From a virus (lineage: Duplodnaviria; Heunggongvirae; Uroviricota; Caudoviricetes), in the IMG/VR virus record IMGVR_UViG_2740892235_000015, positions 1 to 10,289 of that record: DNA of 10,289 nucleotides, one strand, 5' to 3'. Below the pieces are notes generated by a model. The model was not told the origin of the DNA, made no database searches, and saw nothing but the letters and a program-made list of their open reading frames with translations. Made by a program: the position numbers and the translations under genes. This document shows positions 2,328 through 9,750 of this stretch, in pieces (positions within the stretch are counted from its first letter, which is position 1; each line of letters starts with the position of its first letter).

Positions 2328-2501
2328 TTATCCTTTGGGTTCAATACCGCGTTGCTGTAATTCTTTTCGGAGTACTCGCTTGATCCAGGTGGCTAAAGAA
2401 GTGTCACCGTCTGCTTTCGCTGCCTCTTCAAGTTGTGCTCTGAATTCTTCTGGTAGCCGCATTTGGTATGGAGGCGATCGCTTTTCCAATGGTGTTGACA
2501 T
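2328..2501 (-). CDS. Ribbon-helix-helix (Arc/MetJ/CopG-type) DNA-binding protein, 57 aa
   Basis: Hand translation of the minus strand gives MSTPLEKRSPPYQMRLPEEFRAQLEEAAKADGDTSLATWIKRVLRKELQQRGIEPKG. The MRLPEEF...L...A......S...WI...L pattern is a classic RHH strand-helix-helix. AAGGG SD 9-10 nt upstream. Not in the supplied ORF track, presumably because it is below the length cutoff. Confidence 0.7.
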   Translation of the reverse strand: MSTPLEKRSPPYQMRLPEEFRAQLEEAAKADGDTSLATWIKRVLRKELQQRGIEPKG

Positions 2502-2541
2502 GGTAATTACCCTTAATTACTATAGTTACATGGTAATTACC
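2498..2541. promoter_or_regulatory. Candidate operator: two copies of the perfect palindrome GGTAATTACC
   Basis: ACATGGTAATTACC at 2498-2511 and 2528-2541, 30 bp centre to centre, with a TAATTAC half-site between them (2514-2520). Lies in the divergent region abutting the RHH start codon and upstream of the rightward leader. Confidence 0.5.
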
Positions 2542-2767: not shown

Positions 2768-3001
2768 ATGCGTGATGATCGTTTTTATTCCCTGAAACAA
2801 GAATTTTCCGGCGTATCTGATGATGCGGCTGATGCGCTTTCGTCAATGCCAGAACTTATTAGAGCGGCTTTTTTCTTACTTTCCACGAAAGAATATAAAT
2901 CAACGGGACTTGATGTACTGAATATCGCCGCCGATTATGCGGAATATGTGGCAGAGGCGCGTTACAGAAGAAAATTTCCTGAGGATGTAAGCCATGCGTG
3001 A
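2768..3001 (+). CDS. Hypothetical small protein (77 aa)
   Basis: ORF MRDDRFYSLKQEF... with helical, protein-like composition. A G9 homopolymer immediately upstream serves as the SD region. The stop overlaps the start of the next ORF (ATGCGTGA), suggesting translational coupling. The opposite-strand ORF 2859..3116 looks like antisense noise. Confidence 0.5.
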   Translation: MRDDRFYSLKQEFSGVSDDAADALSSMPELIRAAFFLLSTKEYKSTGLDVLNIAADYAEYVAEARYRRKFPEDVSHA

Positions 3002-3210
3002 TATTTACCACGAAACAACAGAACGCGTATTTCTTGCACTTTCTCACAGTGAAAACATGCTGGAAATATTGCGCATATGGCTTGAAACACTTGGCGACAA
3101 TGAACGCGACAAACAAAAATCAAGAATTGTCACGGCATTAATAACGCTTCTTGAGCCTGTAATAAATGAGTTGCAGGAAATAGAGACATTGCACGACAGA
3201 TATAACGAAC
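2994..3210 (+). CDS. Hypothetical small acidic protein (at least 72 aa; 3' end lost in N run)
   Basis: ORF MRDIYHETTERVFLALSHSENMLEILRIWLETLGDNERDKQK..., with GAGGA SD at 2981-2985. Net acidic and helical. Runs into the N run at 3211, so the true stop is undefined. The 292-aa extension in the ORF track is antisense to real minus-strand genes and is not credible. Confidence 0.45.
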
Positions 3211-3220
3211 NNNNNNNNNN
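3211..3220. other. Run of 10 N (unknown sequence, possible scaffold gap or masked bases)
   Basis: Directly visible in the sequence. Lies between convergent genes. Confidence 1.
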
Positions 3221-3223
3221 TAC

Positions 3224-3451
3224 TCATCCTGGCGGGCGATTCTTACGGGACTTTAGCCGCCGTGGGCAGCTTGCTAAAAATGCCTCCAACGCGAATAGTC
3301 CAGGTTTCATTTCTATCGGTATTAGTTGGATATTCAGAGGATTAGCCAGTTCGGCTTCAAGGCGAGCACAGGTTTCTAACTGCCTTTGCCGAATGATTTC
3401 ATCTTCTTGCGTATGCGTGTCTTGTATTGGTGATAGTGTGTTGTTGGTCAT
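3224..3451 (-). CDS. Hypothetical small protein (75 aa), second gene of RHH operon 2
   Basis: Minus-strand ORF starting MTNNTLSP. Start region ATGACCAA is shared with the 2067..2270 gene and embedded in the R1 element. The stop codon is reached before the N run, so the ORF is complete as shown. No recognisable domain. Confidence 0.45.
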   Translation of the reverse strand: MTNNTLSPIQDTHTQEDEIIRQRQLETCARLEAELANPLNIQLIPIEMKPGLFALEAFLASCPRRLKSRKNRPPG

Positions 3452-3504
3452 GGTACTGCCCTGTAAAGCAATGCGCCGTAGTACCTCACGCCACGGCGCT
3501 GATG
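3444..3504 (-). repeat. R1 copy b: conserved intercistronic element with stem-loop
   Basis: 45-nt core at 3460-3504 is identical to 2279-2323. TTGGTCAT at 3444-3451 is also shared. Sits between the stop of RHH gene 2 and the start of the downstream small gene. Confidence 0.85.
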
Positions 3505-3508
3505 GTGA

Positions 3509-3688
3509 TTATTCTGATTCTTTGGCCTTGCGACGCTGGCGGTATTCAACTTCCCGCTTTAATGCAGCTGTAACAAACTGCCCTGTACTTTCGCCGGGCA
3601 TTTTTACCGCCTCAACATTGTTCATAACTTCATGTGGAACCCTTGCCGCAACTGTTTGTGATTTTGCGTTTACTGCTTTTGTCGCCAT
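3509..3688 (-). CDS. Probable ribbon-helix-helix DNA-binding protein, 59 aa
   Basis: From ATG at 3688: MATKAVNAKSQTVAARVPHEVMNNVEAVKMPGESTGQFVTAALKREVEYRQRRKAKESE. RHH-like strand (TVAARVPHEV) followed by two short helices. GAGGGG SD 8 nt upstream. The ORF-track start at 3697 is a GTG. Confidence 0.6.
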   Translation of the reverse strand: MATKAVNAKSQTVAARVPHEVMNNVEAVKMPGESTGQFVTAALKREVEYRQRRKAKESE

Positions 3689-3717
3689 GTTGAGCACCCC
3701 TCATAAAAAACAAATGC

Positions 3718-3814
3718 AGTATGCAGGAAAAAAAATAAGTGTTCAACACTTGACGTGTTTAACACCTCGATTTAAATTGGTGTTCAACACCTTATTTAGG
3801 CAAGGTGTTGAAAC
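3718..3814. promoter_or_regulatory. Divergent promoter/operator region of module 2
   Basis: Rightward sigma70-like promoter: -35 TTGACG (3750-3755), 17-nt spacer, -10 TAAATT (3773-3778). Leftward: -35 TTGAAC (complement of 3741-3746), 17-nt spacer, -10 CATACT (complement of 3718-3723). Inverted-repeat motif GTGTT-N-AACAC at 3739-3749, 3755-3765 and 3780-3790, plus a half-site variant at 3805-3814, overlapping both promoters. Confidence 0.5.
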
Positions 3815-3820
3815 GACGAA

Positions 3821-3860
3821 ACCCCGCACTGTAGGAGCAGTAACGGGGCTTCTAACCAAC
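3821..3860 (+). repeat. R2 copy b: leader stem-loop plus conserved TCTAACCAAC tail
   Basis: CCCCG-c-ACTG-taggag-CAGT-aa-CGGGG (3822-3848) followed by TCTAACCAAC (3851-3860), then AGGAG SD and ATG at 3881. Both stems differ in sequence from copy a but keep the same architecture. Confidence 0.6.
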
Positions 3861-3880
3861 AACGTAAACTAGGAGCCGTT

Positions 3881-4444
3881 ATGGTTGCTGTAAATCATAT
3901 ACCACACCTTGTACACACACAAACTGCCTTTGTGTGGCGTTTTCTGGCCCTGAATATCGGAGAAAAAAACCAGTTGATCGCCAGTGTCGAAAATAGCTAT
4001 GATTCCCGCGCACCTCATAAAACGGGTGTCGGGATTAGCCTCCTGAAAACAACTGAAGCGCACAGCACGCGCCCCGCGTGTTTTTTTGTGCCGCATAGTC
4101 ACACCTTATCAATGGTGGGCTGTACGGGGGCGGAGCAATCCGCGCCGGTTTCTTCAGTGTCCGGTAAGGCTAACCCTGTACAGTCCGCCACCAGCGAAAT
4201 TAGCCTTTTGCGTGGCGGTTATCTTAACCACACTGAGGAGGCTGCCAACATGGCTACTACCCCTGCCCTCGTACATTCTCAAACAGCCTTTATCTGGCGC
4301 TTTATTGCCTTTGGCGCGTCAGACCATCAAATCATCCACGTAACCGCCTGGACGGAACGCGAAGCGCGTAACCGTTGCCCGTACGGTTGTGTTGCTGTGT
4401 TCGCCGCCCGTATTCGTCAGGGGGCGCACCATGCACAATTATGA
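3881..4444 (+). CDS. Tandem-repeat protein, possibly Ash/Icd-like (P4-associated family)
   Basis: 187 aa with an internal duplication: LVHTQTAFVWRFLAL near the N-terminus and LVHSQTAFIWRFIAF around residue 130. AGGAG SD at 3871-3875. An in-frame internal ATG at 4250 is preceded by GAGGAGG (4235-4241). Family assignment is from memory of Icd-like sequences (FxWRF and NRC motifs) and is unverified. Confidence 0.55.
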   Translation: MVAVNHIPHLVHTQTAFVWRFLALNIGEKNQLIASVENSYDSRAPHKTGVGISLLKTTEAHSTRPACFFVPHSHTLSMVGCTGAEQSAPVSSVSGKANPVQSATSEISLLRGGYLNHTEEAANMATTPALVHSQTAFIWRFIAFGASDHQIIHVTAWTEREARNRCPYGCVAVFAARIRQGAHHAQL

Positions 4445-7669: not shown

Positions 7670-7864
7670 ATGCCAGAGAACAACACCAGAAAGCCGGATA
7701 AAAGTGCCACGGTACACATAGACGCCGGAACTATGGAGAAGATCGAACGCTATCAGCAGTTCATCAAAGATAATCACCCGGGTATGCCAGTGCCCACGAA
7801 AGGACAAATCACACGCAGCGCGGTTGAATACTGGTACAGGGCAACGTTAGGAGCCTGGCTATGA
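7670..7864 (+). CDS. Hypothetical small protein (64 aa)
   Basis: ATG at 7670 with GGAGG SD at 7658-7662. Stop overlaps the start of the protease/capsid gene (ATGA). No recognisable domain. Confidence 0.5.
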   Translation: MPENNTRKPDKSATVHIDAGTMEKIERYQQFIKDNHPGMPVPTKGQITRSAVEYWYRATLGAWL

Positions 7865-9750
7865 AAACATGGTTTTCCATTAAGGCTATGGCAGATGTTG
7901 TACATGTGCGCATTTATGACGAGATCGGCGGGTACGGTGTAAAAGCATCGGCACTTACTGACGAGATCAACGCGTGTGGTAATGCGTCTGAAATCCATCT
8001 TCGCATCCATTCACCTGGTGGCGACATCTTTGAAGGGCTGGCTATCTATAACGCTCTGAAAAATCATCCGGCAAAAAAAATCGTACACATTGAAGGCATG
8101 GCGGCTTCTATGGCGTCGTTTATTGCCATGTGTGGAGATCACATCGTTATGCCTGAAAACGCGATGATGATGATACATGCCCCCCGTGGTGTTACTGCCG
8201 GAGTGTCGGGCGACGTTCGCCGCTTTGCTGATCTGATGGACAAGCTGGGCGACACGATGGCAGAAACCTATGCCGGAAGAACGGGCAGGAGCAAACAGGA
8301 GATCACCTCAATGATGGAGGCGGAAACCTGGATGGATGGCAATGAGTGTAAGGCTAACGGCTTCGCAGATGAGGTTATACCCGCGATTACAGCAATGGCC
8401 CGAATTGAATCAAAACGAATCGGAGATTTTTCAAATATGCCGGAAAAAATTAAAAGCATGATCAGCCAGAAAACTGGCAGTGGCGAACAGGAACGACTTA
8501 ACGGAATCCGTGAATTGTTTGGCACCTTCAACGGAAGATATAACGACCTGGCTATAAGTTGTCTTGCGGATTCAGAATGTAGCGTTGAGAATGCACGCGA
8601 ACGCCTTTTACTCGCTATGGGTAAAGAATCAACGCCAACAAACAAAACCACCCCCGCAAATCTTTACTACGCGTACACGGATAACGGCAATATAACTGGC
8701 GATGCCATGCGTCAGGGGCTTAATGCGCGTCTTGGTCACGAACGGGCCGAACGCGGTAATCCTTACGCCATGATGAGTCTTTTCGATATGGCACAGGCAT
8801 CATTAACCCATCGTGGTATAAGCACGGGCAGCTACAGCACACGCTCGCAGATAGTAAACGCGGCATTCACCCACAGCAGCAGCGATTTTACAGATATCCT
8901 TGCTGGTGGCGCTGAAAAATCAGTGCTTGCAGGCTGGGAGCACAGCGGCGAAACATTCCGCCAGTGGACGAAAAAAGGTTCCCTTTCAAACTTCCGGGAA
9001 GCCCGCCGCGTTGGTATGAATGGCTTCTCAACGTTAAACAAAGTGCCGGAAGGGGCAGAATATAAATACATCACCACCAGCGATCGCGGTGAACCCATCG
9101 CGCTGGCTACTTACGGGAATATTTTCAGCATTACCCGCCAGGCGATAATCAATGATGACCTTGATCAGTTATCAACGGTGCCAATGGCTATGGGCCGTGC
9201 AGCATCAAGAACGGTGGGAAATCTGGTTAATCTGGTGCTTACAGGCAACGTAAAACTTTCTGACGGAATAACGCTGTTTGACAAAAAACACAGCAACCTG
9301 ATTGAAGCAGGACTGACAACACCGGGACTTAGTGCAGCACGTCACCTGATGCGCACACAGAAGGACAAAAATGGCGAAGTGCTGAATATTGCGCCTAAAT
9401 TCCTTTTAGTTCCGGCAGCACTGGAAGATCGCGCGTTGCAGATGATTAACTCAACCGCACCTTTCGGGGCTGATAAAAACAGCGGGATCTTTAACCCGTA
9501 CCACAAGCTACTTGATATCATCGTCGATCCCCGCCTTGATGATATCAGCGAAAAACAATGGTACATGCTTTCCGCACAGGGAACGGACACAATCGAGGTG
9601 GCTTATCTTGATGGCAATGACGAGCCTTACCTTGAACAGCAGGAAGGTTTTATCGTTGACGGCGTGGCCTGGAAAGTCCGTATTGATGCAGGTGTGGCAG
9701 CTCTGGATTATCGCGGTATGGTCAAATCAGGCGGTACCGATTCACTATGA
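7861..9750 (+). CDS. Prohead protease (ClpP-like, S14) fused to HK97-like major capsid protein
   Basis: 629 aa. The N-terminal ~190 aa match the ClpP pattern (IHSPGGDIFEGLAIYNALK ... GMAASMASFIAMCGD ... MMIHAPRGV, compare ClpP INSPGG, AASMGAF, MIHQP). The C-terminal ~300 aa resemble the HK97-fold major capsid family. A linker or scaffold-like region lies between. AGGAG SD. Confidence 0.88.
   Translation: MKTWFSIKAMADVVHVRIYDEIGGYGVKASALTDEINACGNASEIHLRIHSPGGDIFEGLAIYNALKNHPAKKIVHIEGMAASMASFIAMCGDHIVMPENAMMMIHAPRGVTAGVSGDVRRFADLMDKLGDTMAETYAGRTGRSKQEITSMMEAETWMDGNECKANGFADEVIPAITAMARIESKRIGDFSNMPEKIKSMISQKTGSGEQERLNGIRELFGTFNGRYNDLAISCLADSECSVENARERLLLAMGKESTPTNKTTPANLYYAYTDNGNITGDAMRQGLNARLGHERAERGNPYAMMSLFDMAQASLTHRGISTGSYSTRSQIVNAAFTHSSSDFTDILAGGAEKSVLAGWEHSGETFRQWTKKGSLSNFREARRVGMNGFSTLNKVPEGAEYKYITTSDRGEPIALATYGNIFSITRQAIINDDLDQLSTVPMAMGRAASRTVGNLVNLVLTGNVKLSDGITLFDKKHSNLIEAGLTTPGLSAARHLMRTQKDKNGEVLNIAPKFLLVPAALEDRALQMINSTAPFGADKNSGIFNPYHKLLDIIVDPRLDDISEKQWYMLSAQGTDTIEVAYLDGNDEPYLEQQEGFIVDGVAWKVRIDAGVAALDYRGMVKSGGTDSL

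Follow-up and report, generated by a model that had tools for sequence, protein, structure and literature searches.

A putative repressor-operator switch between divergent promoters in a capsid-forming phage satellite of Escherichia coli

Introduction

The stretch of DNA described here, 10,289 bp long and hereafter called the window (all coordinates refer to it), comes from the virus record IMGVR_UViG_2740892235_000015 and is part of a capsid-forming phage satellite of Escherichia coli, of the phage-inducible chromosomal island (PICI) type. Between a small leftward gene (3509-3688) and a rightward operon that includes replication and capsid genes, it carries a compact intergenic region in which short palindromes overlap two promoters. 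The region from 3718 to 3790 is probably the control region of the satellite, and the 59-amino-acid product of the leftward gene probably represses the rightward operon through these palindromes. An earlier note, written from the DNA sequence, had proposed a repressor-controlled divergent switch with operators for the protein encoded at 3509-3688. That proposal is supported by the geometry of sites and promoters, by the covariation of sites and protein and by the exchange of both as one cassette, the mechanism itself being inferred.

The probable control region

The features of the control region, from left to right, are the following.

3509..3688, minus strand: candidate repressor gene, 59 amino acids, YlcI/YnfO family, ribbon-helix-helix (RHH)-like (NF041551, phrog_949)
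3697..3702, minus strand: Shine-Dalgarno sequence GAGGGG of the repressor gene, 8 nt before its ATG at 3688 (read from the sequence)
3718..3723, minus strand: leftward -10 hexamer CATACT (read from the sequence); TATACT or TATAAT at the homologous position in relatives, with A at position 2 in 49/49 and T at position 6 in 47/49
3728..3738, no strand: A-rich tract in the leftward-promoter spacer, at the UP-element position of the rightward promoter
3739..3749, no strand: putative operator O1, GTGTTCAACAC, over the leftward -35 and adjacent to the rightward -35
3741..3746, minus strand: leftward -35 hexamer TTGAAC (read from the sequence), inside operator O1
3750..3755, plus strand: rightward -35 hexamer TTGACG (consensus scan); TTGA at the same position in 48/49 relatives, TTAA in one
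3755..3765, no strand: putative operator O2, GTGTTTAACAC, in the rightward-promoter spacer, its first G shared with the -35
3773..3778, plus strand: rightward -10 hexamer TAAATT (consensus scan); TAnnnT at 17-18 bp in relatives
3780..3790, no strand: putative operator O3, GTGTTCAACAC, over the predicted rightward start (about 3785)

The three inverted repeats that the earlier note had pointed out, O1 to O3 in this list, are all present. Their common form, GTGTTNAACAC, has only three exact matches in the window (at 3739, 3755 and 3780), all within 52 bp, for an expected count of 0.01 as estimated from 200 dinucleotide-preserving shuffles, none of which gave three or more. The putative operators form a local set, without further copies elsewhere in the window; when two mismatches are allowed, seven scattered matches are found against 4.9 expected, which is chance level. 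A weak site, ATGTTGAGCAC (3687-3697), which lies over the start codon, was rejected, as it has two mismatches, belongs to this chance-frequency class and is not conserved in L005, a related E. coli locus of the same operator type. The idea that O1 to O3 are chance repeats in an AT-rich intergenic region can call only on the general frequency of short repeats; with three copies found for 0.01 expected, in an arrangement conserved across genera, it is already excluded, and its probability is negligible.

Both promoters described in the earlier note can be read in the sequence. The rightward one (TTGACG, 17 nt, TAAATT) is found by a consensus scan with 9/12 matches, and the leftward one (TTGAAC, 17 nt, CATACT, on the complementary strand) has 8/12 consensus matches and falls under the threshold of the scan. 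They had been called face-to-face, which needs correcting: they diverge, back-to-back, from -35 hexamers separated by 3 bp, and their start sites are predicted at about 3785 (rightward) and about 3711 (leftward), about 74 bp from each other.

The promoters were followed through an alignment of 49 non-redundant intergenic regions, numbered from the base after the ATG of the small gene. A conserved TTGA stands at position 62 in nearly all of them, with T, T and A invariant, and the rightward -10, 17-18 bp downstream, keeps T at its first position in 47/49, A at its second in 48/49 and T at its sixth in 48/49, its positions 3-5 varying freely. The leftward -10, TATACT or TATAAT, has a fixed position as well (31-36), and the leftward -35 is poor and T-rich in most relatives. 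In this alignment the two promoters of the window fall at the homologous positions. This pattern of conservation is the one expected of working sigma-70 promoters, the start sites being predictions. An A-run is present in essentially all related intergenic regions, and the A-rich tract at 3728-3738 may serve the rightward promoter as a tract at the UP-element position.

The candidate repressor

The leftward gene encodes a member of the YlcI/YnfO family, a protein that matches the NCBIfam model NF041551 with 59.7 bits (cut-off 30; E 2.1e-16) and phrog_949 with an E-value of 6.5e-22, and RefSeq gives the identical protein the same family name. It matches no Pfam family. Its N-terminus, MATKAVNAKS, is conserved in 37 homologues, and an N-terminal segment K-S-Q-x-x-x-x-R-V-P-H-E is conserved too. 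An AlphaFold2 (AF2) model of the monomer, built with 37 sequences and with a predicted local distance difference test score (pLDDT) of 81, has helices at residues 19-28 and 35-58, with the invariant turn G32-E33-S34 between them; the second helix is long and has a basic tail. When the family profile is aligned with that of P22 Arc by hhalign (E 0.008, low probability but in a sensible register), residues 12, 14 and 16 fall on Q9, N11 and R13 of Arc. Gln9, Asn11 and Arg13 are the DNA-contacting residues of Arc. One source labels a homologue 'CopG-like ribbon-helix-helix'.

The residue pattern fits an RHH protein, and we assign the fold provisionally. With that proviso, the layout of the immI region of phage P22, in which an RHH repressor gene diverges from the operon that it controls and an operator lies over the promoter of that operon, is found in the window. 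The earlier note had spoken of a leftward 'RHH operon'; an RHH-like gene does run leftward at 3509-3688, but the transcription unit probably consists of the repressor gene alone. A tblastn search with the small protein (E 1e-3) found no homologue among 50,697 phage records.

Operator classes and their covariation with the small protein

Six E. coli loci at 69-92% identity were compared with the window, together with 50 further loci from a translated search, which come from Pectobacterium, Yersinia, Xenorhabdus, Photorhabdus, Gilliamella, Klebsiella, Kosakonia, Hafnia and others. In all related loci the small gene runs one way and an icd-like gene the opposite way, and 49 non-redundant loci, drawn from many genera of Enterobacterales, share one geometry of promoters and operators. 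A short, class-specific site begins in every locus at the final base of the rightward -35, with a second copy of it 22-35 bp further on, at or just after the start site; in most loci a third copy, slightly imperfect, covers the leftward -10 and start. The position of O1 is specific to the E. coli GTGTTCAACAC class, that is, to the window and L005.

The outer operator bases GTG...CAC are common to all loci, and the inner bases vary by lineage. The GTGTTCAACAC class comprises the window, L005 and the Pectobacterium locus L008; other classes include GTGTAAGACAC, GTGTATTTCAC, GTGTGTTTCAC, GTGGCTGACAC, GTGTCCGACAC and GTGCGATTCAC, with a GGGGG-containing type in Klebsiella. The two sites that correspond to O2 and O3 differ within a locus by 0.79 mismatches on average, and a site of one class differs from its best partner in the region of another class by 3.26. 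Operator class agrees closely with a classification of the small protein by its residues 9-17 (adjusted Rand index, ARI, 0.95); of these residues, 12 and 14 differ between operator classes and Arg16 is invariant. Two variable residues and a constant one would match the variable inner and constant outer bases of the operators.

Two loci display the exchange of this unit. L001, the near-twin of the window, and L002 encode identical AlpA-like and neighbouring small proteins, and carry different alleles of the 59-residue protein with different operators. Up to the 3' end of the small gene the two are 100% identical; identity falls to 50-82% across the equivalent of 3519-3866 and returns to 100% from 3867. 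Gene, operators and leader were therefore exchanged together, as one 350-bp cassette. A further block of divergence between L001 and L002 begins near 4427. The inner operator bases and residues 12-15 of the protein would then define interchangeable specificity (immunity) types, provided that the protein binds these sites.

The same comparisons bear on the possibility that the repeats are bound by another protein of the element, such as AlpA or an excisionase, the icd-like protein, or a replication helicase or primase for which they would be origin iterons. Satellites do have iterated origins and AlpA-type DNA binders, and PHROGs labels some icd-like families 'transcriptional repressor'. However, operator type is uncorrelated with the type of the icd-like gene, the first rightward gene (ARI 0.06), identical AlpA-like proteins accompany different operators, as in L001 and L002, and the same operators occur with a RepA helicase in the window and with a primase in L005. 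The placement of the sites with respect to the -35 and -10 hexamers is, moreover, exact to the base pair. AlpA, the icd-like protein and the replication proteins were rejected as binders on grounds of covariation, and we regard this alternative as very unlikely.

Two to four modules can be present in a single genome, and their operator and protein classes often differ, as in Yersinia pekkanenii (L011, L017 and L037), Xenorhabdus mauleonii (L018, L023 and L040) and X. innexi (L015 and L028); the presence of several classes per genome is compatible with heteroimmunity between co-resident satellites. In Gilliamella WF3-4 and X. vietnamensis, one class is repeated.

A second module and the prototype islands

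The window contains a further module of the same design.

2328..2541, no strand: second, tandem switch module, with an Arc-like RHH gene, a promoter and two GGTAATTACC sites

Its Arc-like gene (2328-2501, minus strand) matches phrog_228, 'Arc-like repressor' (4.9e-7), and Pfam Arc (0.0079); the same protein gives 0.008 with phrog_949 and 4.8e-4 with NF041551, which makes a weak link between the two small proteins of the window. The promoter reads TTGACA (2495-2500), 17 nt, TACTAT (2518-2523), and the GGTAATTACC copies lie in its spacer (2502-2511) and at its start site (2532-2541), the same two promoter positions that are occupied in the main module. The conserved leader hairpin follows here too, at 2570-2608. 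The rightward genes of this module (2633 onward, 2768-3001 and 2994-~3200) match PHROGs of unknown function.

Modules of this kind are also found in the prototype islands. In E. coli O157:H7 SS52 (L058), an EcCIEDL933-type element at the roxA site has the Arc-like module directly before the icd-like operon; the Arc-like gene of L058 (3756-3929) is unannotated and lies under an 'Icd-like' pseudogene call on the plus strand. The YlcI/YnfO gene of EcCICFT073, the prototype of Gram-negative PICIs, belongs to another class (KSQALKARV); GTGGGCCACAC occupies both the promoter spacer and the start site, and GGTGGGGGACAG covers the leftward -10. The YlcI/YnfO and icd-like genes of CFT073 bear the out-of-series locus tags C_RS30120 and C_RS30125, which suggests that they were late additions to the annotation.

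The leader and the RNA genes of the rightward operon

Downstream of the rightward promoter lie three leader hairpins, two RNA genes and the first protein-coding gene.

3783..3812, plus strand: leader hairpin 1, arms 3783-3793 and 3802-3812, overlapping O3
3822..3848, plus strand: leader hairpin 2, CCCCG..CGGGG, then conserved CUUCUAACCA (RNAalifold leader consensus)
3861..3883, plus strand: short hairpin whose loop holds the Shine-Dalgarno sequence, followed by ATG 3881 of the first icd-like open reading frame (ORF) (covarying pairs)
4010..4086, plus strand: isrK-like RNA element, a relative of P4 seqA (Rfam RF01394, 61.8 bits, gathering score 50)
4108..4195, plus strand: C4-type antisense (immunity) RNA (Rfam RF01695, 75.4 bits, gathering score 45)
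4250..4444, plus strand: icd-like gene (NCBIfam NF033153, 62.5 bits; same RefSeq annotation at a 99.9% identical locus)

A half-site, GTGTTGAAAC at 3805-3814, had been counted towards a fourth operator. The sequence is indeed there, but it has three mismatches to the full 11-mer and is not an operator, which leaves only three; it is the right (3') arm of a perfect 11-bp inverted repeat (3783-3793/3802-3812). In L005 the right arm reads GGTGCAG, not GGTGTTG, and since the half-site is not kept in a locus of the same operator type, it is best seen as a by-product of the longer stem in this element. The core of hairpin 1 is ACCTTG/CAAGGT in most classes, with the compensatory variants ACCATA/TATGGT and CCTAA/TTAGG, and it is paired in 75% of cells across loci against 28-42% in slid-partner controls, its covariation being modest.

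Compensatory changes support 11/13 of the pairs that RNAalifold predicts for the leader consensus, nine of these 11 in hairpin 2. Hairpin 2 and CUUCUAACCA (3822-3858; columns 56-95 of alignment A4) are conserved across genera, with or without C4 and isrK, and could serve in processing, in antitermination or in protein binding. The arms of the short hairpin around the Shine-Dalgarno sequence covary across loci as well (columns 100-116 of A4), and neither this hairpin nor hairpin 2 matches any Rfam family.

The palindromes could, in principle, act as nucleic-acid structures, as RNA hairpins, as a terminator or as a cruciform: O3 is overlapped by hairpin 1 of the leader, which is genuine and conserved, and a terminator scan flags 3779-3791. 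That call, with a stem of 5 bp that coincides with O3, was rejected. A 5-bp arm with a 1-nt spacer cannot make a stable hairpin, and O1 and O2 lie upstream of both predicted starts, so they would be transcribed from neither promoter. In several classes, furthermore, the core of the site is non-palindromic (GTGTAAGACAC, GTGGCTGACAC), and copies are found in either orientation. A structural role is thus highly improbable, and the palindromes are taken below as protein-binding sites.

The first rightward ORF (3881-4444) had been described as 'Ash-like', a label that does not survive: it is mostly a translation of the isrK-like and C4 RNA genes, and the first real rightward gene is icd-like. The Pfam family Phage_ASH (PF10554) matches this ORF only over residues 40-133, which correspond to nt 3998-4279, and RefSeq marks it as a pseudogene; the Ash protein family may itself be largely a translation of RNA genes. 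In all loci the first rightward gene has an icd-like N-terminus. More generally, RNA genes or small, unannotated regulators lie under the annotation 'ash family protein' and under several 'Icd-like' pseudogene calls.

Two single-stranded segments of the C4 RNA, 4152-4160 and 4166-4173, are complementary to 4052-4058 and 4035-4041 in the isrK-like element, and likewise to 4230-4236, over the ribosome-binding site of the icd-like gene, and 4200-4207, making four target boxes in total with 7-8 nt of complementarity. This is the pattern of the P1/P7 c4-icd and P4 CI systems, namely a C4-family RNA with targets upstream and at the icd ribosome-binding site. C4 and isrK are not constant partners of the switch: among 20 related loci scanned, C4 occurs only in L002, L003 and L005, and isrK as well as C4 only in L002 and L005. 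A promoter-like sequence, TTGATC-18-TATGAT (3974-4003), ends 7 nt before the isrK-like element, and the RNA cassette may have its own promoter besides read-through from 3750-3778. Among the ORFs that were scanned, none had an Ant, KilAC or Bro domain.

The satellite and its genomic setting

The window shows the gene set of Gram-negative and capsid-forming PICIs, with an integrase, an alpA-type regulator, a replication module and its own capsid genes, all co-oriented. A tyrosine integrase, recognized by its integrase domains, occupies 1-1242, and an AlpA/HTH_17-like gene, whose domain match is below the cut-off, lies at 1739-1945; the rightward operon encodes DUF4222, an AAA_25/RepA-type helicase, a single-stranded DNA-binding protein (SSB) and a fusion of ClpP-type protease and capsid. 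An E. coli locus that is 99.9% identical to the window lies between roxA and a module of capsid, portal and terminase genes, and a capsid, portal and terminase block beside such a locus is the make-up of capsid-forming PICIs (10.1101/2022.09.08.507074). The roxA site is also the one occupied by EcCICFT073. DNA similar to 3500-3900 is present in 1,482/5,426 complete E. coli genomes; induction and packaging by helper phages are known only for EcCICFT073 and EcCIEDL933 (PMC6092414; 10.1101/2022.09.08.507074).

Several further observations concern the element as a whole. A single ORF of 629 residues (7861-9750) encodes the prohead protease (a Clp protease domain) and the major capsid protein as a fusion, whereas the otherwise related L001 has separate capsid and protease genes of a different type, and because of this difference the element can be regarded as a mosaic. 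An ORF of 75 residues on the minus strand (3224-3451), downstream of the regulator gene, has no match in Pfam, NCBIfam or PHROGs and no annotation in the 99.9% identical RefSeq locus. Runs of ten N occupy 2669-2678 and 3212-3221. An ORF of 292 residues (2994-3872) that crosses the switch was rejected as a gene: only its first 69 residues match a family (phrog_2196), and the rest passes the N-run at 3212-3221, which is what lets the reading continue, and then runs antisense to two genes. Finally, a direct repeat of ~45 bp stands after both small regulator genes (2279-2323 and 3460-3504) and contains the hairpin GCGCCGT..ACGGCGC, with a T-run following the upstream copy (2279-2323) on the plus strand. 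This hairpin is probably a terminator, possibly a bidirectional one, and the repeat is a likely recombination joint for the exchange of modules.

Proposed mechanism of the switch

The arrangement suggests the following scheme. The 59-residue protein would be transcribed leftward from the weak promoter TTGAAC-17-CATACT, and its dimers would bind three sites of 11-13 bp with the form GGTG-N5-CACC, here GTGTT-N-AACAC. Occupation of O2, in the spacer, and O3, at the start, would exclude RNA polymerase from the near-consensus rightward promoter and thereby silence the icd-like gene, the isrK-like and C4 RNAs and the genes for DUF4222, the RepA-type helicase, SSB and the capsid proteins. Through O1, which lies on the -35 of its own promoter, the protein would limit its own synthesis. 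As the two -35 hexamers are 3 bp apart, polymerase footprints must overlap, and the promoters are therefore expected to compete for polymerase. Closure of the strong rightward promoter would favour the weak promoter of the repressor, which could give two self-reinforcing states, as in P22 immI. In the elements that carry it, the C4 RNA would add a second tier of control after initiation.

How repression would be lifted is a matter on which published work on AlpA bears. Studies of EcCICFT073 and EcCIEDL933 found that AlpA is needed for induction and that its over-expression suffices (PMC6092414; 10.1101/2022.09.08.507074). In the window, alpA is located upstream of the rightward operon and co-oriented with it, and read-through from alpA, antisense across the repressor gene and the operators, is one possible route; a helper-encoded antirepressor is another. 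The AlpA of Pseudomonas aeruginosa, possibly related to that of PICIs, is an antiterminator (PMC7969949).

Several findings weigh against repression of the rightward operon by the small protein, or limit how far it can be taken. The assignment to the RHH fold meets most of them: the AF2 monomer has no N-terminal strand at residues 8-16, Arc is only weakly similar (E 0.008), the 37 members match none of the RHH families of Pfam even at E 1, a Foldseek search against the Protein Data Bank (PDB) gives nothing significant (only E > 6), and sequence and profile searches of the PDB find no solved relative, only ribosomal L24 at E 0.5. As for the sites, their spacings (16 and 25 bp in the window, 22-35 bp elsewhere) are out of helical phase and do not imply cooperative binding, and the window lacks the leftward operator over the -10 that is present in most relatives. 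Because over-expression of AlpA is enough for induction, the small protein cannot be an absolute block. Lastly, the gene adjoins its operators, and linkage alone would give some association between the two; it is insufficient as an explanation, because the separate sites stay identical while the promoter hexamers between them stay constant, and because the recombination joints fall just outside the gene-operator unit.

A milder role for the protein also has to be considered, in which the palindromes are its operators but it acts mainly as a modest autoregulator or fine-tuner, or even favours its own promoter, and activation by AlpA is the real on/off control. The requirement for AlpA, and induction by its over-expression alone in EcCICFT073, an island that carries the module (PMC6092414), fit such a role, as do the position of O1 on the repressor's own -35 and the site that most relatives have over the leftward -10 and start. 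However, it is the rightward promoter, and not the leftward one, whose spacer and start hold the two sites that are best conserved and nearest to consensus, and this promoter is itself near consensus and looks independent of an activator. We consider this milder role unlikely, although less so than the alternatives discussed above, and keep repression of the rightward operon as the preferred reading. A broader proposition is more tentative and, in our estimate, falls short of even odds: that YlcI/YnfO (or Arc-like) proteins are the unrecognized master repressors of Gram-negative and capsid-forming PICIs, counterparts of Stl/Rpr, existing as a dozen or more heteroimmune types carried on 350-bp cassettes and overridden by AlpA or helper induction.

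Comparison with known systems

In Gram-positive PICIs, among them the SaPIs (pathogenicity islands of Staphylococcus aureus), a master repressor, Stl or Rpr, controls divergent str/xis-rep promoters (PMC6092414). The window resembles these islands in that the repressor gene, here a candidate one, diverges from the excision/replication operon and lies between int and the replication genes. It differs from them in its regulator, as Stl/Rpr are larger helix-turn-helix proteins that are released by helper-phage proteins, whereas the protein described here has 59 residues and is RHH-like. In Gram-negative PICIs, AlpA has been treated as the sole master regulator, and as an activator (PMC11773190; 10.1101/2022.09.08.507074). 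Our literature search found no function for the YlcI/YnfO/DUF3950 family and no description of a repressor-operator module in Gram-negative PICIs. The module sits where Stl/Rpr sits and bears on an open question in satellite biology; it is a candidate for satellite immunity and heteroimmunity. Its classes would provide natural, matched pairs of repressor and operator whose recognition code is readable and that could be put to use as orthogonal regulators.

The RNA genes recall the immI region of phages P1 and P7, with promoter P51 and its C1 operator, c4, icd and ant, and the P4 region with PLE, seqA, CI RNA and seqC, since a C4-family RNA, an isrK/seqA-like element and an icd-like gene are found together here as well. 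That C4 and isrK matches in Gram-negative PICIs are relatives of CI and seqA has already been noted (PMC10111431). As in P1, a protein-controlled promoter would stand upstream of an RNA-based second tier, and, like the a and b targets of P1, two C4 segments are each directed at an upstream box and at the region of the icd ribosome-binding site. The differences lie in the protein tier and in the operon: P1 relies on the distant C1 repressor, whereas in the window an RHH-like protein is encoded divergently and its operators are local; P4 lacks a protein of this kind at PLE; and no ant gene corresponding to that of P1/P7 was recognized here.

Small RHH proteins that bind pseudo-palindromic sites over -35 and -10 hexamers and regulate their own synthesis are represented by CopG of pMV158 and by RHH antitoxins such as RelB and ParD. 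These are co-transcribed with their targets (repB or the toxin), whereas the target operon proposed here is divergent; in addition, the window has three separated 11-mers and no evident toxin partner.

P22 immI, with its Mnt and Arc repressors and divergent promoters Pmnt and Pant, is built on the plan that we propose for the satellite, in that a small RHH repressor gene diverges from the operon that it controls, short operators lie over close, back-to-back promoters and promoter competition leads to switch behaviour. The two differ in protein family (YlcI/YnfO here, with Arc at E 0.008) and in their operators, with three copies of one 11-13 bp site in the window as opposed to one Mnt and one Arc operator. 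In the window, furthermore, no second RHH gene heads the controlled operon, whose first gene is icd-like and in which no ant was recognized, and the host element is a satellite, not a phage. Small RHH-type repressors with operators over divergent promoters are thus a well-known kind of device, and it is their proposed occurrence in Gram-negative PICIs that we did not find described. By analogy of layout, the closest counterpart of the switch device is Mnt/Arc of P22, and that of its combination with c4 and icd is the immI region of P1.

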